Source of the DNA: Rickettsiales bacterium
GTDB taxonomy: Bacteria > Pseudomonadota > Alphaproteobacteria > Rickettsiales > UBA3002
Direction: 5' to 3'
Assembly: GCA_022763105.1 (NCBI GenBank)
Contig: JALEGK010000019.1
Location: 357 to 64,356 of the forward strand
Length of the DNA stretch: 64,000 nucleotides
Below, in pieces: positions 6,242-53,872 of the stretch. How positions within the stretch are numbered: the stretch's first letter is position 1; each line of letters opens with the position of its first letter. The notes under the pieces were generated by a model, which was given only the letters and a program-made list of their open reading frames with translations, made no database searches and was not told the origin of the DNA. Position numbers and translations under genes: made by a program.

Positions 6242-8749
6242 ATGAGTAGAGAAAAAGTAACAGATGTGAATATTAAAATCACCGATGATGATGCGCTGTA
6301 TTTCCACAGCAAGGGTCAGCCGGGAAAATTGGCGATCAAGGCAACTAAGCCTCTCTTAACCCAACGTGATTTGTCACTAGGCTATTCGCCGGGTGTTGCT
6401 GTCCCTTGTGAGCGCATCGCGAAAGACGAAGATGCGGCTTATGATTACACCGCAAAAGGTAACTTTGTTGCTGTTATCTCTAACGGTACTGCGGTGCTCG
6501 GCCTTGGTAAACTTGGCGCACTGGCTTCTAAACCCGTCATGGAAGGTAAAGCGATTCTGTTTAAGCGCTTTGCGGATATTGATGGGATTGACGTGGAAGT
6601 TGATACCACGGATGCCGACGAATTTATCAATGCCGTCAAGCTTATCTCTCCTACTTATGGTGGTATTAACCTAGAGGACATCGCTGCTCCTGATTGCTTT
6701 ATCATTGAGCAGAAGCTGAAAGAACTGTGCGATATACCTGTATTCCACGACGATCAGCACGGTACCGCGATTATTGCTGCTGCGGGTATTATCAATGCGG
6801 CTGACATTACGGGCCGTAAAATTTCAGACCTTAAAGTGGTGGTGAATGGTGCTGGCGCTGCGGGTATGTCTTGCCTAGAGCTACTGAAGACCATGGGTGT
6901 GAAGCATCAGAATGTGTTCTTGTGTGACCGCAGCGGTGTTGTTTATGAAGGCCGTACCGAGTCGATGAACCAATGGAAATCTAAGCACGCGGTTAAAACC
7001 AAAAAGCGCAGCCTGCTTGATGCTATGACTGGTGCAGACGTATTCTTGGGTCTATCGGTTGCGGGTGCCGTTGATAAGAAAATGGTGAAAGCGATGGCGA
7101 AGAATCCGATTATCTTCGCGATGGCAAACCCAACCCCAGAGATTATGCCAGAAGAAATTCTGGAAGTGCGCAAAGACGCGATCATCGCGACGGGACGTTC
7201 TGATTATCCGAACCAAGTGAATAATGTGATGGGTTTCCCATACATTTTCCGTGGCGCTTTGGATGTACGCGCAAAAGAAATCAACGAAGAGATGAAACTA
7301 GCGGCGGCTGAAGCACTTGCCATGCTAGCGCGTGAAGATGTGCCAGAAGAAGTATCTGCTGCTTATTCAGGACGTGAGCTTAAATATGGTCCGGGCTATA
7401 TTATTCCTGCACCGTTTGACCCTCGTCTTATTACCACGGTTCCGGTTGCAGTGGCAGAAGCCGCTATGGAAACTGGCGTGGCTCGTAAACCAATTCAGGA
7501 TTTCGAGGCATATAAACAAGAGCTATCGGCTCGTCTAGACCCGACAGCGAACAGCCTGAATCAAATCTTCGATAAGGTAAAAGCGAATCCACAACGCATT
7601 ATCTTTGCAGAGGGTGAAGAAGAGAAGACCATTCGCGCGGCGATTCACTGGCGCGATAATGGTTACGGACAGCCAATTCTGGTTGGTCGTGCGGATCGCA
7701 TTCATTCGACCATGCGTCAGATTGGCTTGAAGAAAACTGAAGATGTTGAGATTGCTAACGCCGCTGTTAGCCCACATGTACAAGAGTATATCGACTTCCT
7801 GTATGACAAGCTTCAGCGTCAGGGTTTCATCTACCGTGATATCGTTCGTATGGTGAAGAATGATCGTAACATCTTTGCGTCATGTATGCTTGCTTGCGGT
7901 CATGGTGATGCGATGATTACCGGTCTAACCCGTGGCTATAACCGTGCGCTAGAGAATGTCTGCCGTGCGATTGGCCCTAAGGATGGTGAGAACCCGTTTG
8001 CCACGACCATGATGGTGTCTAAGCACCGTACTGTGTTTATTTCCGATGTGGCTGTACAAGAGCTACCAAGCGCTGAAGAGCTGGCTGATATTGCAGAACA
8101 AACCGCGATGAAGGCGAAGCAGATGGGCCACGAGCCTCGCGTCGCGTTCTTGTCTTACTCTAACTTCGGTAACCCGATGAAAGAGAAGTCTCAGCGTGTA
8201 CGTGATGCGGTTAAGGTGATGGAAGGTCGCAATGTCGACTTTGAATTCGACGGTGAAATGGCCGCTGATGTAGCGCTCAATAAAGAGCTATTATCACTTT
8301 ACCCATTCTGCCGCTTAAGCGAGCCAGCAAACGTACTCGTTATGCCTGCGCTTCACTCTGCTCACATTGCTTCTCGTCTTCTTACTGAATTGAGTGACGG
8401 TGTGAATATCGGCCCAATCCTATGTGGTCTAGAGAAGCCGGTACAGATTGTTCAGATGGATGCATCTGTGGCTGATATCATTAACTTAGCAGCCATTGCA
8501 TCGATTGATGCGATTGATAAAAAAGGCCCAGTGCCACAACCTAGCGCAAAACGCAATAAGCCTAAGGCTGGCACGAAGACAGCTCGAAGCAAAACGCAAA
8601 AACGTCCGGTAAAGAAAGCTGCGACAACAAAAGCGACTGCTACAAAAACGAAGAAGTCTTCTGCCAAAAAAGCGACTGCTAAAAAAGCCCCAGCAAAGAA
8701 GAAAGCGCCGGCTAAGAAAGCATCTGCCGCTAAAAAAAAGGCTAGTTAA
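6242..8749 (+). CDS. maeB: NADP-dependent malic enzyme (malic enzyme plus PTA-like domain) with a Lys/Ala-rich C-terminal tail
   Basis: Starts MSREKVTD... after GGACAGGAA. Has malic-enzyme N-terminal and NAD(P) domains (VVNGAGAAG) and a long phosphate-acetyltransferase-like C-terminal domain. ATG 6242 is preferred over the ORF-track start 6113, which overlaps mutS. Confidence 0.9.
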   Translation: MSREKVTDVNIKITDDDALYFHSKGQPGKLAIKATKPLLTQRDLSLGYSPGVAVPCERIAKDEDAAYDYTAKGNFVAVISNGTAVLGLGKLGALASKPVMEGKAILFKRFADIDGIDVEVDTTDADEFINAVKLISPTYGGINLEDIAAPDCFIIEQKLKELCDIPVFHDDQHGTAIIAAAGIINAADITGRKISDLKVVVNGAGAAGMSCLELLKTMGVKHQNVFLCDRSGVVYEGRTESMNQWKSKHAVKTKKRSLLDAMTGADVFLGLSVAGAVDKKMVKAMAKNPIIFAMANPTPEIMPEEILEVRKDAIIATGRSDYPNQVNNVMGFPYIFRGALDVRAKEINEEMKLAAAEALAMLAREDVPEEVSAAYSGRELKYGPGYIIPAPFDPRLITTVPVAVAEAAMETGVARKPIQDFEAYKQELSARLDPTANSLNQIFDKVKANPQRIIFAEGEEEKTIRAAIHWRDNGYGQPILVGRADRIHSTMRQIGLKKTEDVEIANAAVSPHVQEYIDFLYDKLQRQGFIYRDIVRMVKNDRNIFASCMLACGHGDAMITGLTRGYNRALENVCRAIGPKDGENPFATTMMVSKHRTVFISDVAVQELPSAEELADIAEQTAMKAKQMGHEPRVAFLSYSNFGNPMKEKSQRVRDAVKVMEGRNVDFEFDGEMAADVALNKELLSLYPFCRLSEPANVLVMPALHSAHIASRLLTELSDGVNIGPILCGLEKPVQIVQMDASVADIINLAAIASIDAIDKKGPVPQPSAKRNKPKAGTKTARSKTQKRPVKKAATTKATATKTKKSSAKKATAKKAPAKKKAPAKKASAAKKKAS

Positions 8750-8770
8750 GCCTTAGTCAATTATTTGGGA

Positions 8771-9469
8771 TTAGTTAGAGGCCTGGTTGAGTTTTTCCTC
8801 ATACCAGGTCTCTCCGATCTCGATTTTCTCGCGACCTTTAGAGACACGCCAGTCATTGCTATCACGCAAACTATAGATGCATCCACAATATTGCTGCGCA
8901 TAGAAACTCTCGCGTTTGGCAATGTCATACATGCGGGCACCGCCGCCATTTTTGCGCCAATTATAGGTCCAGTATTCCACACCATCATAATGCTCGGCTG
9001 CTCTGATGCCGCAATCATTGATCTGGTCCATATTCTTCCAACGAGAAATACCCAGCGATGAAGTAATAATCGGGAAGCCATTCTCGTGTGCATAAAGAGC
9101 GGTACGCTCGAAGCGCATGTCAAAGCACATGGTACAACGCACACCGCGCTCTGGCTCGTGCTCCATGCCTTTGGCACGTGAGAACCAGTTTTGCACATCA
9201 TAATCTGCATCGATGAAGGGAATACCCATTTTCTCTGCGAAGCGAATATTCTCTTCCTTGCGAATGTTATATTCTTTGAGCGGATGAATATTGGGATTGT
9301 AGAAGAATATATGCAGATCAATGCCGTTGGCTAGCATCTGCTCCATCAGCTCGCCCGCACAAGGCGCACAGCATGAATGCATGAGGACCTTATTCTCGCC
9401 ATTTGGCGGAGTCAGGTCGATATGCTTGGCGACTTCCATTGCGCCATCTTGCTGTAGAGTCATAGTCAT
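8771..9469 (-). CDS. queH: Epoxyqueuosine reductase QueH (DUF208)
   Basis: Contains [17 protein letters not shown] and QQYCGCIYS, the cysteine pattern and length typical of QueH. Confidence 0.8.
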
Positions 9470-9508
9470 GTGGTGGGTTATGCGGGAAATTTAGTGTAAA
9501 ATCAAGTG

Positions 9509-12500
9509 TTAGGTAACTGACGCAACCGCTTTGTCTTTTTCTACTTCTACTTTTGCCACTTGCTGCGTTTCAACAGCGCCAGCCGCTTCCTTACCGTCAG
9601 TTTCCGTACCGGCATTTTTTAGTGCCTGACCAGCATCTGCGGTTTGTAGTTTTGGATCTTTAGCACCGTCTTTACCGTTATTATCATTGGTGGCTATCTG
9701 TCTCGCATCTTGTGCAACCACACCATCAGCCACCGCTTTTTTACCTAACGCTTGCAGTTTCTCATCTTCTGTCAACGGTGCTTGAGTCGCAACAATATGC
9801 CCCGTTACCGTTACTGCTGTTCTCTTTGTTTCGCCAACGCTACCAGTACCTAGCTCAGCTTTTTCTAGCTCTTTTGCTCTTTCCTGCTCGATGCGCTCCA
9901 TCTCAGCCTTGGTTTCTTTCGCTGCCTGTTTCAGATAATAACCTGTCACCAGCGTCTGATTACCGTTCGCCTGCTTAATCAATGTTTTCGCAAATAAATA
10001 TTGTTCAGCTAATTGCTTGTCACCCTCTTGAATGGCTTTTGGGTCGCTGCCAGTAAAGCGCTCATACGCCGCTTTTGCTTCGGCATAATTTCCTAGCTTT
10101 TGCTCTAATCGCGGTGCTGATTTCGCGTCTACAGGTACATCAACAGCAAGTTTCGTAGCATCTAAATCGCCATACATGCCGAACCAATCTTTTTCGGTTC
10201 TACCTTGTAAAACCTCAAGGTTAGGCTCAATTCTCTCTTGTTTAACCTGCTGCGCCACTACTTTTGCCAAATTAGTATAGAATTGATCAGCGTCCATTTC
10301 TTGACTTAGTGCGCTGTCCATCGCAGGAACTTGTATACCATACTCTTCTTGTAATTTTCCTAGGATCATCGAATCAATTGCCTTGGTCACATGCGCGCTA
10401 GATAAAGCTTTCAGGCGCTCTAAATCTACTCCATTCAGTTCAGAGTCTGCGGAAAGTTTGCCAAACACTGAGTCCATCAGGCGCTCTTTCGTGCCATCTA
10501 CTACCTTTTTGTTTCTCTCGAATGCCTCACCTTTCAGCTTCGCAATCGTCTCTGGCATAATGAGTGGGTTTTTTTCTCTTAATTTATCGATTGCAGCGAT
10601 TTGAGGATTAGAACGACCAAATGCTTCTGGATTTTTCAGGAAACTAATAGAAGCGGCATCCACAAATGCCATCCTTTTAATTTCATCTGTACTCAATTCC
10701 GTATCTTCCATAATGAACGTGTAGTCCATGAGTAATTCTTTATTGAGCGTTTCGAGCTCTGATTTAATAATATCCTGATATTGTGCACTCAGTTCATCTG
10801 GCGCATATTTTACGAATACTGCCTTAGCTTCTCTTAGTTTTGCATCAACAATCATTGGGCTGAGAGGGTTGCCATCTTTTTCTGCGGCACGAATATTTTC
10901 CATTAATTCTTGTAATGCCACACGCTGAGGTCTGATGTGGGAATATCTCTCCATGTGGTCAGGGTTCATTGGGTCATAATCGATCAGAGATAGTTGTAAC
11001 TGCATTCCAGCGATCTGGCGGATGCTTTCATTTTCACTACCCAACCCTGTAACGACGTCTTTGAACGTTTGGATGCGCTCATCTTTTTGCTCTGACGTAA
11101 GAGTTGTTTGCACAAAGGGTCTATTACGCTCAATATCGACCAATTTACCCATGTATGCACGCGTCGCATCATCTAACGCTAATTGCGCATCGGCTCCAGG
11201 CTTCTTCGTACCGGTTGCTTTACTCAGCGCTGCACGTTTTTCATCGGTCAGAAGAAGATTAAGCTCCTGCAACTTAGCCAGACGTGCATTAATCACATCT
11301 TCGTGTGTTGCTTGCACCTTAATATCACCAAATTCTTTGCCTTCTGCCTTTGCTTTTTCTTGTGCTTTTTTTGTCAATTCTTCACTTAGAGTATTAGTAT
11401 CGATCGCAAAAATCTCGTTGGTAATACCCCAGCCGAGTTCTTTATCCTGCTGCATAGCAATGGTGAAGCGTTCCATCTTAGCTCTGAGCTGGATGTACTG
11501 ACCGTAAATAGCCAAATCACCATTGAGTGATGGATCTGCATAATCAAATCTGCTCGTTTTACGCAGAACAAAATTTCGTCTATCACCGCCATCAATCAAG
11601 TCTATCTGATACTCTTGAAGCTGTCGCTCTACTATCGCGCCATACTCACGACTTAATGGATCTGCAGCTTTGAGTTCTGCCTCTAGCTTAGCATCCACTA
11701 ATTCCAAGTCTTTCATGATATTGGCTGCCAGCACTGGATTATTGATAGCAATAAACTGCAAGGTTTCAATTTTTGAACGGGCACTGTTGATGATTTGAGT
11801 GAAATCACTTGTCTCTCCTCTAGCAACCCCCAACAATTGCTGATCGGTAATTTTCATTTCAGGGTTTCTGGAGCGATCAAGCAGCAATGCCGCCATAGCT
11901 GTGTTCGGCTTAATAATACCTAGAGACTCTGCGCGGAAGTTCTTAAGGTCACGCAGTGCTTGCAGCTCTTCAACTTGCGCTTTTAAGGTTTCTGAAGTGC
12001 TATCATCGACCCATTCTATAGACTTTTTATGAAGCAACGCATCAAGTTTACTCTTAAAATCGGTTAGGCCCTGTTCTTTACCAACCGCAGCTAGTTCTTG
12101 AGCATATTTTTGATTAACCAGCTCTTCTCGTTGCGCAATCAAGCTGGTTAATTCATCAGAGAGCACCTGCCCCTGACCCAGTTCTTTACTCACATCTTGC
12201 TTAGGATCAAAGGTCGTGTTGACACTACCGCGATTCGTTTGATCAACCGTTCCCATTAGCATCTGCATACCCGCAACAGATTCTGCTTCTAACCTTGCAA
12301 TCTCTTGACGGTATTTTAGAATATCTGGGCTTTCCCACGGATTAGCTTCGATTTTCTCTTCATCATATTTCGCTTTTAGCTTCTGAAGCTCTGCACGCAT
12401 TTCAGCTTTTTTCTGATCAATCTGAACGCCATTTTCGAGCATTTGTATCAGCACTGCATCGCCGATAACTTTGCGATCTTTATCGGTCAGCTTTTTAGGG

Positions 12501-36220: not shown

Positions 36221-37669
36221 CTACAGGATTAGCGCTTTTGCCGCTTCTCCAGCTATTTTTACCAATGGTGTCGGCATTAAAAAGAAGCCAACGGTGATGA
36301 TAGCGCATACACATAAGACGAACCGAACCCCAAATGATTCAAAGCGATCAAACGTGTCCTTCTGCTCGTCAAAATACATGACTTTCACCACTTTGAGGTA
36401 ATAATAGGCCGCAACCACGCTGGAAAGCAAGCCAATGATCACCAAACTGTATAGTTCTGCCTCAATTGCGCTCAAGAAAACGTACATTTTACCGAAAAAT
36501 CCGGCAAGTGGTGGAATTCCTGCCATTGAGAACATCATCAACGCCATAAAGAGAGCAAGCTTTGGAGAGGTCTTAGACAGCCCGCCCAAATCTTCAATCT
36601 GCTCAACATTTTTGCCATTACGTTTCATCAGGCAAACAAAGCCAAAGGCTCCCAGACTCATGAACAGATAGAGCGATAGATAGATAAGCATAGCCTTAAT
36701 ACCCGACTCTGCGCCGACCGCAATACCAATCAATGCATAGCCGACATGACCGATGGAGCTGTAAGCCAAAAGACGCTTGATGTTCGTTTGGCGAAGTGCG
36801 CCGAAGGCACCAATGATCATGGATGCGATGGAGACAAAAATGAGGATCTGCTGCCAATGTTCGAACAACATATGGAATGGTTGTAGCAAGAATCGTCCAA
36901 ACACGCAGAGCGCTGCAATTTTTGGTACAACCGCAAAAAAGGTCACGACTGGCGTCGGTGCGCCTTCATACACATCTGGTGTCCACATATGGAACGGCAC
37001 GGCAGATACTTTAAAGCAGAAACCAACGATGACCATAACCAGACCAACAATAAGGCCGTAGCTGACAGGTTGATCGACATAGGCGCTGAAGAAATGCGCG
37101 AGCGATGCAAAGTTGGTCGTGCCAGAGAATCCGTAGACTAGTGACGCGCCAAACAACATCATGCCGGATGCGAGTGAGCCAAGAATAAAGTATTTCAGTC
37201 CTGCTTCTGATGAGCGTGTATTATCGCGATCAATTGCGGTCATGACATAAAGCGCCAAACTACCCAGCTCTAAGCCCATATAAAGCGATAGCAAATCATC
37301 GGCAGAGACCATAAGCATCATGCCGGTGGTGGCAAGTAGCAGAAGCACTGGATATTCGAACCGTTTATTCTCTTCTTCCCTGAGCCACAGCATACTGATC
37401 AGCAGCGCCATGAGTGCGCCGACAAGCATAAGGATTTTGCTATATTGCGTGAAATAGTCAGAACGGAACAAACCTTCAAAGACAATCACCTGATCTTTTG
37501 GCTGTACGGTGATGAGGTAGGCAGCAGCAGCCAAAGCAAGAACAGAGAATAGCGTTGCCATTAACGTGACTTGGTTGCCTCTGAATGCGCCGGCCATGAG
37601 GACAATAATGGCAACGGCCAGTAACAATAATTCTGGTGAAAGTGGCACTAACTCGGCTACGTCAAACAT
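36221..37669 (-). CDS. nuoN: NADH-quinone oxidoreductase subunit N
   Basis: 482-aa polytopic antiporter-like protein, last gene of the nuo order. Confidence 0.9.
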   Translation of the reverse strand: MFDVAELVPLSPELLLLAVAIIVLMAGAFRGNQVTLMATLFSVLALAAAAYLITVQPKDQVIVFEGLFRSDYFTQYSKILMLVGALMALLISMLWLREEENKRFEYPVLLLLATTGMMLMVSADDLLSLYMGLELGSLALYVMTAIDRDNTRSSEAGLKYFILGSLASGMMLFGASLVYGFSGTTNFASLAHFFSAYVDQPVSYGLIVGLVMVIVGFCFKVSAVPFHMWTPDVYEGAPTPVVTFFAVVPKIAALCVFGRFLLQPFHMLFEHWQQILIFVSIASMIIGAFGALRQTNIKRLLAYSSIGHVGYALIGIAVGAESGIKAMLIYLSLYLFMSLGAFGFVCLMKRNGKNVEQIEDLGGLSKTSPKLALFMALMMFSMAGIPPLAGFFGKMYVFLSAIEAELYSLVIIGLLSSVVAAYYYLKVVKVMYFDEQKDTFDRFESFGVRFVLCVCAIITVGFFLMPTPLVKIAGEAAKALIL

Positions 37670-45985: not shown

Positions 45986-46225
45986 CTACTTTTCAGCCTC
46001 GATTTTTTTATCTCTTATCTTTTTTAGAACCTCGTGCATATGCATCTCACTGAAGATTCTAAATATAATATAAGGTATGACAGCAGCCGATAATGCAATT
46101 GCTGCAGCCGCAGCCTGTTGGGGGGCGCTTTTAGCAGCGCTCAAATCCATTACCAAACCGCACCCAGAAATTAGAGCAAAACACACGGCAGTAATTGCAG
46201 CTAATTTAATAAAAAATTCCATCAC
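45986..46225 (-). CDS. Small hydrophobic protein inserted between nuoF and nuoG (unknown function)
   Basis: 79 aa. The ATG overlaps the nuoF stop (ATGA). Has two hydrophobic segments, a lipobox-like ALISGC and a basic C-terminus. Confidence 0.55.
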
Positions 46226-47498: not shown

Positions 47499-48149
47499 TT
47501 ACCCCGCCTTCTTCATGGCTTCCCAGCCTTTTTTCTGTTCTTCCAGCGTTGTCGGGCCGGTAAATGGCTCAGACGCGTTACGGCCAGCCTGAGAGCCGAC
47601 TTTTGGCATTTCGTCTTTCTTCAGCATCTTGAGAAGCTTGCGGGTGCTGTTGTAATCGAGGTCTTCGAAGAAACGATCCCAATCTGGCGTGGTGATTTCA
47701 ATCATTGGCGCGTTACAGCATGCGCCCAAACATTCCACTTCCGTCAGACCGAATTTACCGTCTTTGGTGACTTCACCAAATTCAACATTCAGCTCATCCT
47801 TGCAGGCTTTCACCACATCATCGGAACCACGTAGCCAGCAAGGTGTGGTGGTGCAGACCTGCACATGATACTGCCCCATCGGCGCGAGGTTATACATGGT
47901 ATAGAAGGTCGCGACCTCATAGACGCGGATGAATGGCATATTGAGCATGGTCGCAATGGTTTCGACCGCGGCGCGTGGTACCCAGCCATCGTTCTGGCGC
48001 TGTGCAAGCGTGAGCAGCGGCATGACCGCGCTTTGCTGACGCCCTTCTGGATATTTGGCGATATGTTTATTCGCCTCTTCCAGATTTTCTGGCGTGAACT
48101 CAAAGCTCAGCGGTTGTAATTCATCTGGTGCAGGTTGTCTGGCAGCCAT
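47499..48149 (-). CDS. nuoE: NADH-quinone oxidoreductase subunit E
   Basis: 2Fe-2S ligands in [11 protein letters not shown]...[10 protein letters not shown]. Confidence 0.93.
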
Positions 48150-49330
48150 TAGCGGTCAATCTCCCCAAATACGATATCTAATGTACCAATGATCGCGCTG
48201 ACATCAGCGAGCATGTGGCCTTTACTAATAAAGTCTAATCCTTGCAGATGCGCATATCCCGGCGCGCGGATTTTGCAGCGATATGGACGGTTGGTGTCAT
48301 CTGCCACTAAGAACACGCCGAACTCACCTTTTGGTGCTTCAACTGCGGTGTAGGTTTCACCCGCAGGCACATGATAGCCCTCTGAATAGAGTTTGAAGTG
48401 GTGGATGAGCGCTTCCATTGAGTGTTTCATGAGATCGCGACGTGGTGGCGCGACTTTCGGATCGTCAGTGAGGACTTCACCACCCGGCAATTTCTCGATG
48501 CATTGCTTGATCATGCTGACACTTTGGCGCATCTCTTCGATACGGCAGAGGTAGCGATCATAGCAGTCACCGTTTTTACCAACTGGAATCTGGAATTCTA
48601 ACTCGTCATAAATTTCATATGGTCGGGATTTACGCAGATCCCATGCGACACCTGAGCCACGAAGCATTGGACCAGTAAAGCCCCACGCCTGCGCTTCTAC
48701 GGCACTTACTACACCTACATCGACGGTACGCTGTTTCCAGATACGGTTTTCAGTCAGCAGGCCTTCGACATCATCGATGATAGGCAAAAATCCATCGCAG
48801 AAGGCTGCGATCTCAGCGTCCATACCCGCTGGGATATCTTGGTGGATACCACCCGGGCGAACATACGCAGAGTGGAAGCGAGCACCGGATGCGCGCTCAT
48901 AGAATTCCATCATTTTCTCGCGCTCTTCAAACATCCAAAGCAGCGGTGTCGTCGCGCCAATATCGATGGCTTGTGTTGTCACATTCATGATGTGGTTGAG
49001 CAGGCGCGTCATTTCCAGGAAAATGACTCGGAGATATTTCGCGCGAGCAGGGATTTCGCAACCAAGCAACTTCTCTACGGCTAGCGAGTAGCAATGCTCC
49101 AGCGCCATTGGCGAGACATAATCCAAGCGGTCAAAATAAGGCAGCGCCTGAAGATAGGTTTTATGCTCGATGAGTTTTTCAGTACCACGATGCAGCAGAC
49201 CAATATGCGGGTCTGCACGTTCTACCACCTCGCCGTCCATTTCCAACACCAATCGGAGCACGCCGTGGGCTGCTGGGTGTTGCGGGCCAAAGTTAAGCGT
49301 TAGATTCTTAATATCGACTTCGTTACTCAC
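48149..49330 (-). CDS. nuoD: NADH-quinone oxidoreductase subunit D
   Basis: Contains [15 protein letters not shown] and ends IVFGEIDR. Confidence 0.96.
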
Positions 49331-49345
49331 GTTTTACCTACTGTG

Positions 49346-49894
49346 TCATTGTCTTAACAGTGTGGGAACACACTGGCGAATATATTGGTTTCGTTGGCCT
49401 ACAAAGCGTGCTGGATTATGACCAGCCGCAATATACGCATCATCGAAACGTTTTGCACATATTTCTTGTGCTTTTTTCAGTCTTTGTTTCTTCTGTTCTA
49501 CTAATCGTTCTTGAAGCTGGCGGCTGCGCAACGCTTCTAATTGTCTTTGCTCTTCCATACGCTTTTCTGCCTCGCCCGGCGCTTCGACATATTGCAGGCT
49601 GTAAACGCCATACAGAACCGCGCAGGCCGTTAATATAACGTAGCCCCTGGCGAGTGGCGTCAGCGAGAAATTGCTTACATTGTATGCGGAAATCCATATG
49701 GCTTTGAGCGTCATTGCGATATGGACCAACACGAAGAAATACAGCGGAATCGCGATGAATGGAATCAGGTTGGCGAGGCCAAATGCCAGCACAGCGAGCG
49801 CGAAGCTGCTCACTAGGTGAAACAGACAAAACACCTTCCAGAGCGGGGCTGTGCCCGACCATATTTCCACTAGAAATGCTTTGAACTCCGACAT
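49346..49894 (-). CDS. Membrane protein inserted between nuoC and nuoD (three TM segments, a coiled segment and a two-Cys C-terminal module); unknown function
   Basis: 182-aa ORF whose hydrophobic frame is preferred over the overlapping Arg-rich 152-aa frame. Its C-terminal 37 aa align without gaps to the C-terminus of the upstream ORF. Confidence 0.6.
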   Translation of the reverse strand: MSEFKAFLVEIWSGTAPLWKVFCLFHLVSSFALAVLAFGLANLIPFIAIPLYFFVLVHIAMTLKAIWISAYNVSNFSLTPLARGYVILTACAVLYGVYSLQYVEAPGEAEKRMEEQRQLEALRSRQLQERLVEQKKQRLKKAQEICAKRFDDAYIAAGHNPARFVGQRNQYIRQCVPTLLRQ

Positions 49895-49902
49895 TCACGC
49901 TT

Positions 49903-51249
49903 TTACTGACCCTTCAAATATTCCACACATTTGCTGACATAGGCCTTGCGGCGATCTGGATAATCATCCGGATTAAAGCCACCTGCGCGATATTCAGCTT
50001 CAAAATTCGCACGGCAACGCCCTTCTTCAGGTGATGATACTGGCTCAGGCATTGGCTGTGGCGCACTCATTGGTGGCAATTCTTCTGGTGCGGATGGCGC
50101 GATTGGCGCTGCATCTATCATAGGGTCCGCATCCATTGGTGGGGCCATCATGTCTGTTGGCTCGCCCATTGGAGGCGTCATTGGAGGCTCCATGGCATCA
50201 GCAGGTGCTGGCATACCATCACCTTTTAAAATCATCACATCTTCTGATGGTGCAGGTGGAATAGCCGGCGTGCCAAAGGTTGGGGTTGGAGTTGTTTCTG
50301 GCGCATCTGATCCGCCTGTTAAGAAAATAACCGCAGCCAGAATCAATGCGATTAAAACGACTGCCAGAATAATATATTTTTTGTAGGACTTTGCCGGAAC
50401 ATCAGCTTCGAATAATTCCTGTGGCTGCTCTTCATCTGTATGCATTTCCTGACGTAGTTGATGCGTAACATCATTCGCAAACGGATCAGAAGGTTGCTGG
50501 AAGTTTTCTGAATAGGGATCTGATGTATCCCCGCTTGATGGAAGCGGTGGTGGTGGCGTTGCAGCCGCTGTATCCGCACCGGTAGCCGAAGCCATTTCAT
50601 TATCATCGAATGGGCTATCGAACGGGCTGCCATAGTCACCAGATGAAGCCGGGGTGTCTGATGGCGTTGTTGTTGAAGTATCTTGCCAATCAGAACCCGA
50701 AGACGAGCTGTCTGCATCCGCAGAACCAAAGCCATAATCAGCATCACCAAAACCATCAGATGGAGGGGGTGTTGGCGCGTCTGGCGCATCGCTTGGCGGT
50801 GGAGGTGGTGGAGGTGCGTCTGGCACTTCATCCAGCGAGCCAAACCCACCCGGGTCATCACTGGGCGATGGGTTATATTCGTTACTATATGGGTCCATTG
50901 ACGCTGCTACAGATGCTGTGGTTGATTCTGAAGGTGGCGGAGATGGCGGAGGAGCTGGTGGCGCGTCCGGCACGTAATCACCTTGCGTTTGAGAAGATGC
51001 GCTATAATCATCCCCAACATCATCTACTGGAGGTGGTGGCGGCGGCGGTGGCGCATCGGGAACCGCATCCAGAGGGTCTGGGTCTGAAGGTGATTCTGCT
51101 GGCTGATCTGCCTTCATATCTTCTTCAGTAAAGGGACCGCTTGCGAATGGGCTGCTGACATCATCTGAGTCATCCTCAAAAGAGGTCGCATCATTCATCT
51201 CATCTTCCGAGAATGGATTGGCAAATGGGTCCTTGTCTGAATCTGTCAC
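49903..51249 (-). CDS. Acidic proline-rich single-pass membrane protein inserted between nuoC and nuoD; unknown function
   Basis: 448 aa. The GTG start overlaps the nuoC stop (GTGA). One TM segment ([24 protein letters not shown]) and the shared two-Cys C-terminal module. Confidence 0.6.
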
Positions 51250-51860
51250 GCTGCGCTTTCTCCTGCTTTTTCATCCCCAGGAAGAACATATTCTTCCGGC
51301 CCCTCCCAAGGGCTCAGGTAATCAAATTGGCGGAATGCCTGCGGTAATTTTACTGGCTCATACACGACACGTTTTTGCACTTCGTCATAGCGCATCTCGA
51401 CATACCCGGTAAGCGGGAAATCTTTGCGTTGCGGATGACCGTCGAAACCGTAATCGGTAAGGATACGGCGCAAATCCGGATTGTTCGCGAAGAAGACGCC
51501 ATACATGTCCCACACTTCACGCTCGAACCAACCGGCTGCCGGATAGACTGAGACCACTGACGGCACTGCCGTTGCTTCATCGGTGAAGACTTTAACGCGA
51601 ATACGTTGATTGAGGCTGGTGCTGAGCAGTTGATAGACCACTTCAAAACGCTCGGCACGTTCTGGGTAATCCACACCGCACACATCGATCAGCATTTTGA
51701 ACTGGCTGTTCGCATCATCTTGCAAGAAAGACAGTACATGCACCACTTTGTCGCGCGCCGCATGAATGCATAGCTCGTCATTATCGACATGGAAATCGAC
51801 CACGTCGGTTTTCAGTTGTTGTGCGATATACTCGCCTAATTCCTGTAGCGACTCTTTCAT
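51246..51860 (-). CDS. nuoC: NADH-quinone oxidoreductase subunit C
   Basis: 204 aa with ...[11 protein letters not shown]...[11 protein letters not shown]... Confidence 0.94.
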
Positions 51861-52412: not shown

Positions 52413-52796
52413 CTACTCCCAGTCTAACGCACCTTTTCTCCATTCGTAAATGAAGCCGATGGTTAGAATCCCTAGAAAGATCATCATTGACCAAAAACCG
52501 AACAATCCGGTTTCTGCGAGCGAAATAGACCAAGGGAATAAAAACGCCACCTCAAGGTCGAAGATGATGAATAAAATTGCGACAAGATAAAAGCGCACAT
52601 CGAACTCACCGCGCGCATCGCCAAATGGCTCAAAACCGCACTCGTATGGTGAGAGTTTCTCATTGTCTGGTTTCGCGCGGGAAATCAGCATTGGCAGCAC
52701 GACCATAACGGTCGCCATGACTGTGGCAATGCCCAGAAAAATGATGATTGGAAAATATGAAGCGACAACTTGTTGCATGGCAATCTCTAATGACAA
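52413..52796 (-). CDS. nuoA: NADH-quinone oxidoreductase subunit A
   Basis: 127 aa, three TM segments, ...[32 protein letters not shown]... Confidence 0.94.
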
Positions 52797-53096: not shown

Positions 53097-53157
53097 AGAA
53101 ACACTTAAGCCCAGCCCCTTTTAGGGAGCTGGGCTTAAGTGGCGCGAGTGACGAGAC
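53097..53157 (-). repeat. Proximal copy of the 61-bp direct repeat (part of the functional tRNA-Asp 3' end and its terminator)
   Basis: See the distal copy. Confidence 0.9.
53104..53139 (-). terminator. Hairpin immediately 3' of tRNA-Asp
   Basis: CTTAAGCCCAGC...GCTGGGCTTAAG, a 12-bp perfect stem that can be extended, followed on the minus strand by TGTTTCT. A second identical hairpin lies at 52940-52975. Confidence 0.55.
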
Positions 53158-53216
53158 TCGAACTCGCGGCCTCCGCCGTGACAGGGCGGCGCTCTAACCA
53201 ACTGAGCTACACCCGC
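53140..53216 (-). tRNA. tRNA-Asp (anticodon GTC), CCA encoded
   Basis: Hand-folded: GCGGGTG TA GCTC AGTTGGTTA GAGC G CCGCC CTGTCAC GGCGG AGGCC GCGAG TTCGAGT CTCGT CACTCGC G CCA. Confidence 0.93.
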
Positions 53217-53290
53217 GCAATAAGGTCGTTTTAGATGCCAGAGTTTTCTAACGCTGTAAAGTGTTTTTAGACCACTTTATAGCAACTCTA

Positions 53291-53366
53291 TGGTGGGCGA
53301 TGACAGGCTCGAACTGCCGACCCTCTCGGTGTAAACGAGATGCTCTACCAACTGAGCTAATCGCCC
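53291..53366 (-). tRNA. tRNA-Val (anticodon TAC), CCA encoded
   Basis: GGGCGATTAGCTCAGTTGGTAGAGCATCTCGTTTACACCGAGAGGGTCGGCAGTTCGAGCCTGTCATCGCCCACCA. Confidence 0.93.
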
Positions 53367-53460: not shown

Positions 53461-53748
53461 TTACGCAGCTTTCTTACCGTTCACCAGATCTTTAAGACCT
53501 TTACCTGGCTTGAACTTAGGTTGCTTAGAAGCAGCAATCTTGATCACGTCACCGGTACGTGGGTTGCGGCCTTCGGTAGCTTTACGCTTAACAACAGAGA
53601 AGGTACCGAAACCAACTAGACGTACGTCCTGGCCTTTTTTCAAAGATTTTTCGATTGCTTCAATGAATGCATCTACAGCTTCAGATGCTTTAGCTTTGGT
53701 TAGGTCTGCTTTCTTTGCGACTTCTGCGATCAGTTCGTTCTTATTCAT
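53461..53748 (-). CDS. hup: HU-family DNA-binding protein
   Basis: MNKNELIAEVAKK...GFGTFSVVKRKATEGRNPRTGDVIKIAASKQPKFKPGK. ATG 53748 follows GGAGAC. Confidence 0.93.
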   Translation of the reverse strand: MNKNELIAEVAKKADLTKAKASEAVDAFIEAIEKSLKKGQDVRLVGFGTFSVVKRKATEGRNPRTGDVIKIAASKQPKFKPGKGLKDLVNGKKAA

Positions 53749-53872
53749 GATCAAGTCTCCTTACGAGATGAAAGTTAAAATGTGTGACGAAATTTCGTCG
53801 AAACCAAGGGTACCTGCGGTACATCCGAGAACGACCTAAACACTATTAAAAATGTTTGTAAATAGTTTTTCG

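Follow-up and report, generated by a model that had tools for sequence, protein, structure and literature searches.

A shared two-cysteine C-terminal module in two predicted membrane proteins encoded between nuoC and nuoD of a Rickettsiales bacterium

The locus and its two inserted genes

The DNA analysed here (the window) is a stretch of 64,000 nt from a Rickettsiales bacterium (UBA3002; assembly GCA_022763105.1, contig JALEGK010000019.1, positions 357-64,356 of the forward strand), the minus strand of which carries a complete nuo operon for complex I, from nuoA (52796..52413) to nuoN (about 37669..36221). Two open reading frames (ORFs), referred to as ORF448 and ORF182 after their lengths in amino acids (aa), lie between nuoC and nuoD of this operon and were described in an earlier note as membrane proteins with a common C-terminal module of 37 residues containing two Cys. 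The present analysis concerns this module, named CX28C for the spacing of its two Cys residues, and the proteins that carry it. The features of the nuoC-nuoD junction, with the neighbouring genes as given in the ORF list and the transmembrane (TM) and other segments of the two proteins, are as follows.

nuoC, 51860..51246, minus strand: 204 aa, upstream neighbour
Shine-Dalgarno-like hexamer AGGAGA, 51264..51259, minus strand: inside the 3' end of nuoC, 9 nt before the GTG of ORF448
ORF448, 51249..49903, minus strand: 448 aa, between nuoC and nuoD
ORF448 residues 1-291, 50377..51249, minus strand: acidic, Pro-rich, low-complexity region in which poly-Pro tracts occur and D/S-P-F motifs recur; predicted to be disordered and to lie in the cytoplasm
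ORF448 residues 292-314, 50308..50376, minus strand: single TM helix, predicted N-in/C-out
ORF448 residues 315-411, 50017..50307, minus strand: acidic linker rich in Pro, Met and Ala, predicted periplasmic
ORF448 residues 412-448, 49906..50016, minus strand: CX28C module with C412 and C441
ORF182, 49894..49346, minus strand: 182 aa, between nuoC and nuoD
ORF182 residues 1-102, 49589..49894, minus strand: amphipathic N-terminal helix and three TM helices
ORF182 residues 103-145, 49460..49588, minus strand: highly charged linker rich in E, R, K and Q, predicted to form a single long helix
ORF182 residues 146-182, 49349..49459, minus strand: CX28C module with C146 and C175, sequence CAKRFDDAYIAAGHNPARFVGQRNQYIRQCVPTLLRQ
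nuoD, 49330..48149, minus strand: 393 aa, downstream neighbour

The last 37 residues of ORF448 and ORF182 align without a gap and are identical at 13 of the 37 positions (35%), namely C1, F5, Y9, A11, G13, N15, P16, R23, Y26, C30, V31, L34 and Q37. When the two full-length proteins were compared by BLASTP, this C-terminal segment was the sole match (11 of 31 positions identical; E=6e-5, calculated for this one comparison). The recount and the BLASTP result thus bear out the shared C-terminus reported in the earlier note, as well as its statement that the remaining parts of the two proteins are mutually unrelated.

The close spacing of the two genes to their neighbours, reported at the same time, can be read directly from the sequence. 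The GTG start of ORF448 (51249..51247) overlaps the TGA stop of nuoC (51248..51246) in a GTGA tetranucleotide, and 15 nt separate the stop of ORF182 from the GTG of nuoD. No promoter- or terminator-like site was found on the coding strand from nuoC to nuoD. Overlapping stop and start codons also occur at junctions of module genes in other organisms, the loci and proteins of which are cited here by L and P numbers (TAATG and ATGA in L093, ATGA in L086 and TAATG in L090). Co-expression with complex I, proposed earlier, is therefore supported by the position within the operon, the lack of internal signals and the stop/start overlaps here and at four other junctions, and we infer that ORF448 and ORF182 are co-transcribed and translationally coupled with the complex I genes. 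The codon log-likelihood is positive in the annotated frame only, for ORF448 and ORF182 alike. The GC content at third codon positions (GC3) of ORF448 is 0.37 as against 0.53-0.60 for the nuo genes, and a search of ORF448 for DNA tandem repeats gave merely trivial repeats of 6-12 nt in its Pro/Gly-rich part. That ORF448 and ORF182 are real genes under selection is well supported.

Residues 1-291 of ORF448, predicted to be cytoplasmic, are highly acidic and Pro-rich and contain three similar tracts of a 10-residue type as well as D/S/N-P-F repeats. The TM helix of ORF448 has an uncharged core of 23 residues with a mean Kyte-Doolittle hydropathy of 2.63. The 15-residue stretch right before this helix resembles SPFTAEQLRQHL, which occupies the same position in P0050.

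The CX28C module family and its membrane anchors

Relatives of the window's NuoC were scanned with one genome taken per species, giving 80 alphaproteobacterial loci whose NuoC is 60-73% identical to that of the window. Related ORFs were present in the few loci that have a large nuoC-nuoD gap; one of these loci, L003, encodes a 235-aa protein with an N-terminal membrane domain of the ORF182 type and the tail CGEKFDSVYAEQGFDPVEYPEERASYVDACV, and a profile of the gap proteins led to P0005 (187 aa), which has the same architecture. An exhaustive hmmsearch of 1.84 billion representative proteins with a 4-sequence module profile gave 37 matches at E<=1e-3, 35 of them true members, so that the module does have homologues beyond the window pair. 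ORF182 alone returned only itself in a word-indexed search of 5.8 billion proteins, and a 42-column module alignment found no match in a word-indexed protein search, too few 5-residue words being shared. A degenerate 90-nt DNA pattern run over metagenome contigs picked out one locus, L090, where the module lies directly upstream of nuoD.

Several candidates were set aside. P0051, a repetitive 'IPACAGMTD' protein matched in the module search, was dropped as a non-member on inspection, as was P0062 (235 aa), which consists of four repeats ending in GWxDQCT. These tandem repeats of about 50 residues (W-S-L-E-A-C-L-K-D-A-S-Q-Y-Q-H ... N-G-W-L-D-Q-C-T), with two Cys each, represent a different family and have in common with the module the Y/W-x-x-x-C ending alone. 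Two-Cys tails in L002 (CX28C, otherwise little alike) and L004 (CX36C) fall below the profile and are possible degenerate relatives at most.

Tandem copies included, 44 module instances were gathered. Both Cys residues and the CX28C spacing are invariant in all 43 aligned instances, and no other residue is; P16 and Y/F19 are near-invariant, and positions 5, 9, 13, 15, 26 and 27 are strongly conserved. The consensus, over about 37 residues, is C-x3-[FML]-x3-[AY]-x3-[GN]-x-[DN]-P-x2-Y-x6-[YW]-[LIV]-x2-C, and both window modules show its core signature (hydrophobic residue at 5, A/Y at 9, G/N at 13, D/N-P at 15-16, Y/F at 19, Y/W at 26 and L/I/V at 27). The module is almost always found at the C-terminus, and ten proteins carry two or three copies in tandem. 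A hidden Markov model (HMM) was built from 42 module instances of other organisms, the window sequences being left out, and was run against six-frame translations of the window and of all the loci fetched, to which its E-values refer. It scored the ORF448 module at 49.3 bits (E=4e-13) and the ORF182 module at 42.3 bits (E=6e-11), and it found neither a third copy in the window nor a copy in unrelated loci. Therefore, the similarity between ORF448 and ORF182 reflects homology rather than chance and, on the sequence evidence, the module is a rare conserved domain family.

The fold of ORF182 was predicted by AlphaFold2 from a 33-sequence alignment. The full-length model has a mean predicted local distance difference test score (pLDDT) of 95.6, with helices at residues 2-13, 18-43, 45-72 and 78-102 above 90. 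A continuous helix of 49 residues (108-156) is predicted to run from the charged stalk into helix A of the module, which ends at residue 156 and is followed by a turn at 157-164 on the conserved G-x-N-P and by helix B at 165-181. Modelled alone, the ORF448 module gives the same helix-turn-helix with a pLDDT of 96.5; thus, the structure prediction of the isolated module that had been proposed yields a confident hairpin. In the predicted hairpin of ORF182 about 10 residues separate the turn from C146 on one side and from C175 on the other, an arrangement that would bring the pair face to face across the antiparallel helices. Conserved Asp/Asn, Gln and Tyr side chains are placed around the turn, and the conserved positions follow an a/d-like core pattern.

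The distribution of positive charges was used to predict topology. In the 28 members with three TM helices, Lys and Arg number 108 at the N-terminus, 14 between TM1 and TM2, 86 in the TM2-TM3 loop and 33 in the 15 residues after TM3, while members with a single TM helix have 3-5 such residues before it and 0-2 after it. ORF448 has three right before its helix (KSYKK) and none after, a bias that matches four other single-TM members. By the positive-inside rule the N-terminus, together with the TM2-TM3 loop of the 3-TM proteins, is therefore placed in the cytoplasm, and the module is predicted to lie in the periplasm in both architectures, C-terminal to the final TM helix of an N-in anchor, in agreement with the location suggested earlier. 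Cys residues after the last TM helix are paired in every complete member, 25-29 residues apart and mostly 28; of three apparent exceptions, two are explained by a TM3 helix that went undetected and the third by the protein being a truncated fragment. The invariant Cys pair, this parity in the tails and the hairpin geometry support the disulfide that the earlier note thought possible. One structural disulfide per module is thus supported but not proven, and remains a prediction.

Most module carriers use a 3-TM anchor with the pattern W-R-G-E-x-K-L-W-K-V-F-W ... W-R-C-A-F-N ... W-G-Y-x-x-R, and a profile search with this anchor recovered 28 family members. In the widespread form of the family (about 110-125 aa; P0006-P0028) the pattern reads WRGxxPLWKVFWLWG ... 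VWRCAxN ... WGxxAR, with WKVFW and WRCAxN nearly invariant; the conserved Cys of WRCAxN is predicted at the cytoplasmic face. The N-terminal 102 residues of ORF182 are probably a divergent member of this undescribed family of small membrane proteins, as they align with it over the whole domain and keep G14, L18, K20, F22 and N72. W23 is missing (VFCLFH), as is the R-C dipeptide (WISAYN for WRCAFN), which is also missing from the orthologue P0042 (WICSGN). Most members of the 3-TM family are without the module, and module-less members (L083:5001-5351 and L084:5001-5378) are found outside nuo operons, one beside a nitrate reductase and MFS transporters and another beside a SLAC1-type channel. 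ORF448 is not a member of this family. It shares its architecture of a low-complexity N-terminus, one TM helix and a Pro-rich linker with P0035, P0041, P0045 and P0050. Thus each of the two anchor types, though mutually unrelated, recurs with the module in other organisms. The spacer between anchor and module is charged and helical in ORF182 (about 38 residues), Pro-rich in ORF448 (about 97 residues) and up to about 170 residues long in relatives, where it consists of acidic or Met/Gln-rich disordered tracts.

Comparison with the databases agrees with the earlier remark that the module is not a described domain. Searches of Pfam (2025) and NCBIfam (2026) with both ORFs, 16 relatives and gap cargo gave sub-threshold noise only for the module and for the 3-TM anchor, and neither database has a model for the 3-TM family. 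When module profiles of 4 and of 43 sequences were searched against PDB sequences, the best E-values were 0.29 and 0.56, for chance matches to P450 and ETO. Foldseek comparison of the full ORF182 model and of the module alone with the PDB yielded no match with an E-value under 5, nor did a CHCH or complex I chain come up. The Pfam/NCBIfam, PDB sequence and Foldseek searches showed no homology to any core subunit, supernumerary subunit or assembly protein described for complex I, and all proteins of the family are named 'hypothetical protein' in the databases.

Genomic contexts of the module

Thirteen contexts of module proteins were examined, the contig of P0045 being counted among them. Those of known arrangement are given below.

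Window: nuoC-ORF448-ORF182-nuoD
L003: module protein in the nuoC-nuoD gap
L004: divergent CX36C variant in the nuoC-nuoD gap
L081/L082: nuoC-GNAT-P0005-nuoD
L085: tandem module pair before nuoD
L086: P0041 directly after nuoC
L088/L089: nuoC-GNAT-P0036-126 aa-nuoD
L090: module directly before nuoD
L092: nuoC-GNAT-P0054
L093: module protein as the sole insert in nuoA-G, overlapping both neighbours
L087, 1245-1829: module protein after RNase HII, not nuo
L091, 59-790: module protein before a Dam-type (MethyltransfD12) methyltransferase, not nuo

The tabulation of homologues by locus, proposed in the earlier note, shows the module protein in the nuoC-nuoD gap in 10 of the 13 contexts, all of one clade, and outside nuo in L087 and L091, the proteins of which belong to the 'AQNQAY' subfamily. 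A second conserved context (rnhB/methyltransferase) was considered for these non-nuo members and is not claimed, there being two short contigs only. Since the nuo-linked loci all belong to one clade, the 10 of 13 represent largely vertical inheritance and not independent associations. The genomes of this clade are labelled 'Rickettsiales bacterium', 'Alphaproteobacteria bacterium UBA6178/UBA6149/UBA998' and 'Azospirillaceae'. NuoD of the other module-bearing loci is 76-88% identical to that of the window. Where NuoD identity to the window is at least 73%, 13 of the 14 full-length loci have an insert in the nuoC-nuoD gap, and where it is 72.6% or less, nuoC and nuoD are adjacent in nearly all loci.

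Module proteins occupy the nuoC-nuoD gap of about half of the clade loci, and the module is not in the gap of the clade members L005, L010, L052, L045, L015, L080 and L001. The gap holds the 3-TM anchor alone in L080, a 56-aa single-TM remnant ORF in L001 and nothing in L005. A glyoxalase is present in L010 (6606-7019) and L052, a GNAT gene in L045 (5240-5773) and beside module proteins in L081, L088 and L092, a DUF4160/DUF2442 pair in L004 (2625-3149) and DUF2442 alone in L015; outside the clade, a GIY-YIG gene lies in the same gap of L058 (1196-1564). The junction is an insertion hot spot among loci with NuoD at least 73% identical to that of the window.

Comparisons between orthologues indicate that the module is the best-conserved segment of both proteins. 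ORF182 and P0042 are 39% identical overall, with 54% in the module, 25% in the linker and 37% in the TM region. ORF448 is 43-48% identical to P0041 and P0050 in the module, 30-34% in the linker and 5-8% over the N-terminal region; its module is 40-48% identical to those of P0033, P0035, P0041, P0043 and P0050. Each window module is thus nearer to modules elsewhere (54% and 40-48%, respectively) than to the other window module (35%). In L085 a tandem pair lies upstream of nuoD, in which a 3-TM protein with an ORF448-like module is followed by an ORF182 orthologue. The closer modules elsewhere and this tandem pair argue that the duplication is old and that the pair is not peculiar to the window. 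The best explanation of the sequence relationships is that ORF448 and ORF182 are ancient paralogous carriers of the module, probably inherited as a nuo-operon insert of one alphaproteobacterial clade.

Other non-nuo ORFs are found at further junctions of these operons. In the window, a 79-aa ORF between nuoF and nuoG (45986-46225, minus strand) has two predicted hydrophobic helices and a K/E-rich tail, a 4-nt overlap with the nuoF stop, a distance of 8 nt to nuoG and a GC3 of 0.35, and matches no Pfam family; it is not present in L093 or L090, and L081 has a different ORF of 193 aa at the same junction (nuoF-nuoG, 11065-11646). L081 also carries ORFs of 122 aa between nuoD and nuoE (7741-8109) and of 255 aa (PdaC/DUF3298) between nuoE and nuoF (8729-9496), and L090 has a 269-aa ORF between nuoE and nuoF (10190-10999); the window is without these extra ORFs of L081 and L090. 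Immediately upstream of nuoA, the window has genes for tRNA-Asp (GTC), tRNA-Val (TAC) and a DNA-binding protein of the HU type (53140-53366 and 53461-53754, minus strand), and the order of HU followed by nuoA is also seen in L081.

Probable role and comparison with known systems

The reading favoured here, with a probability of about 45%, is that ORF448 and ORF182 are co-expressed but autonomous periplasmic tether or binding proteins. Both would be made from the polycistronic nuo mRNA by translational coupling, so that their supply would follow complex I expression; the hairpin would be exported to the periplasm, stapled by a single disulfide between its two Cys and held off the membrane by the spacer as a non-catalytic binding module. 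Such a protein would act as a small tether anchored in the inner membrane and not as a fixed, obligatory part of complex I. A tethered binding module is preferred over a fixed subunit because the spacers vary in type and length, the module occurs in one to three copies and it has been lost repeatedly within the clade. Autonomy is further favoured because cargo of unrelated kinds occupies this gap and two members are located away from nuo, because the module-less 3-TM family is not nuo-linked, and because Paracoccus complex I is without a periplasmic accessory subunit (PMC11522691) and the product of another nuo-operon frame, Urf1, was found in the light-harvesting 1-reaction centre (LH1-RC) complex (PMC13066640). 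The link of the module proteins to complex I is one of synteny only, made up of operon position and translational coupling, and a binding partner other than complex I, for example a different membrane complex or some component of the envelope or periplasm, is considered somewhat more likely than complex I itself.

Several considerations weigh against this interpretation. Genes in a tightly coupled operon are often functionally tied to it. In L093 nothing but the gene of the module protein is inserted in nuoA-G, and this gene overlaps both its neighbours; the module stayed at the nuoC-nuoD junction while its anchor switched between three TM helices and one, and such retention could mean that being produced together with complex I is selected for. 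Instead of projecting from the membrane, the charged helix of ORF182 could run along its surface, and lineages without the module in the gap may encode it elsewhere in the genome. Moreover, the topology and the disulfide of the module are predictions.

Ranked second, and held to be less likely, is the view that complex I has in the two proteins supernumerary subunits or assembly factors specific to the lineage. The anchor would then pack on the membrane arm, the disulfide-stapled hairpin and a preceding surface helix would bind the periplasmic face of NuoL/M/N/H/J/K/A, and the function would be analogous to that of the CX9C subunits NDUFA8, NDUFS5, NDUFB7 and NDUFB10 on the intermembrane-space face of mitochondrial complex I. 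The 10 of 13 contexts in the nuoC-nuoD gap, the stop/start overlaps with nuoC and/or nuoD, and the retention of the module both across NuoD divergence down to 76% identity and despite anchor exchange would fit such a role, as would the disulfide-stabilised helical hairpins that CX9C subunits supply to the outer face of the mitochondrial enzyme (PMC8762328) and the extended loops with which Paracoccus offsets their absence (PMC11522691). However, the synteny is mostly vertical inheritance within one clade, seven members of which are without the module at this gap, and the gap also takes up unrelated cargo. Variable copy number and spacers of up to about 170 residues are ill-suited to a fixed docking site, no known product of an alphaproteobacterial nuo unidentified reading frame (URF) is a complex I subunit (PMC11522691, PMC13066640), and the module has neither sequence nor fold similarity to CHCH proteins. 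The stronger proposal, that in a clade of uncultured Alphaproteobacteria the CX28C proteins are true periplasmic supernumerary subunits, encoded within the nuo operon and bracing the P-side membrane arm as an independent bacterial counterpart of the CX9C subunits, is regarded as unlikely.

A functional Cys pair, serving as a periplasmic thiol redox sensor or relay or as a metal site near the respiratory chain, is improbable. It could account for the two Cys being the sole invariant residues of the module, in proteins co-expressed with a redox enzyme, and for the conserved Asp/Asn, Gln and Tyr around the turn; but a CX28C pair across a hairpin is typical of a structural staple and not of a CXXC-type redox motif, and the conserved positions follow the a/d-like core of two helices. 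Clusters of His or Met and other conserved ligands are absent, and the Pfam/NCBIfam/PDB/Foldseek searches gave no similarity to thioredoxin-like, Dsb or metallochaperone proteins. Hardly credible is the alternative that the ORFs are spurious or decaying remnants of insertions and that their common C-terminus is a chance likeness or a functionless relic. The low GC3 and largely low-complexity sequence of ORF448, the failure of ORF182 alone to find a close homologue in the word-indexed search, and degraded-looking relatives such as the 56-aa ORF of L001 and a frameshifted copy in L085 would be expected of such remnants, but not coding potential confined to the annotated frames, 35 homologues with invariant Cys spacing, a module better conserved than its flanks, very high AlphaFold2 confidence from a shallow alignment, and open frames of 448 and 182 codons coupled to both neighbours.

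The locus thus offers a testable anatomy, with a rare undescribed periplasmic domain of disulfide type, two alternative anchors and a translationally coupled position between nuoC and nuoD. Should the proteins bind complex I, no accessory subunit on the P side of the bacterial enzyme would have preceded them, and relatives of the mitochondrial ancestor would have arrived convergently at a counterpart of the mitochondrial CX9C subunits; it is on this association proving real that a high interest hinges. If they do not, the nuo operon would serve as an expression platform for unrelated membrane proteins, as with Urf1 in LH1-RC. Either way, new domain-family entries could be made for the module and for the 3-TM anchor.

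Among known systems, the twin-CX9C (CHCH) subunits of mitochondrial complex I, namely NDUFA8, NDUFS5, NDUFB7 and NDUFB10 (PMC8762328), resemble the module in being small helix-turn-helix structures, with disulfide bonding between the two helices, on the P side of the energy-transducing membrane; for the module, the disulfide and the location are predictions, and its genes are linked to complex I by synteny. Unlike the twin CX9C motifs with two disulfides, the module has one Cys per helix in a single CX28C pair and, unlike the soluble CHCH subunits imported by MIA40, it is anchored in the membrane through a long spacer; neither the PDB sequence search nor the Foldseek output for the module contained a CHCH protein. 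In Paracoccus complex I, all four accessory subunits lie on the hydrophilic arm and none is periplasmic (PMC11522691).

The TonB/TolA tethers, which are anchored in the inner membrane and span the periplasm, provide a second comparison. Like these, ORF448 joins a single N-in TM helix to a small C-terminal domain by a Pro-rich spacer, predicted to be periplasmic, and ORF182 has a long charged helical spacer. Unlike these, ORF448 and ORF182 are without TonB_C, TolA or any other Pfam domain, no ExbBD/TolQR partner genes are found in the locus, where the neighbours are nuo genes only, and the module is a far smaller C-terminal domain that is predicted to depend on a disulfide.

For some thirty years, complex I operons of Alphaproteobacteria have been known to contain additional reading frames, most of which lack an explanation. 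A nuo-operon URF encoding a membrane protein is thus a known kind of feature, while the module and the 3-TM anchor are undescribed. The best-studied parallel, and the one such URF whose fate is known, is Urf1, encoded between nuoE and nuoF in Rhodobacterales, an N-terminal fragment of which is protein-3h/protein-O of LH1-RC (PMC13066640); the product was found in this photosynthetic complex and not in complex I (PMC13066640). The ORF182 model had no significant match in the PDB (Foldseek, entries to April 2026), the presence of 8YZ2 (protein-O) in the copy searched being unconfirmed. Unlike Urf1, ORF448 and ORF182 lie at the nuoC-nuoD junction, have one and three TM helices, respectively, instead of a U-shaped TM pair with a surface helix, show no sequence similarity to it and end in the 37-residue CX28C hairpin, predicted to be periplasmic. 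Like Urf1, they are encoded by non-nuo genes embedded in a complex I operon and probably co-transcribed with it, and their N-terminal TM segments lead through a long linker to a C-terminal domain that is small and compact.

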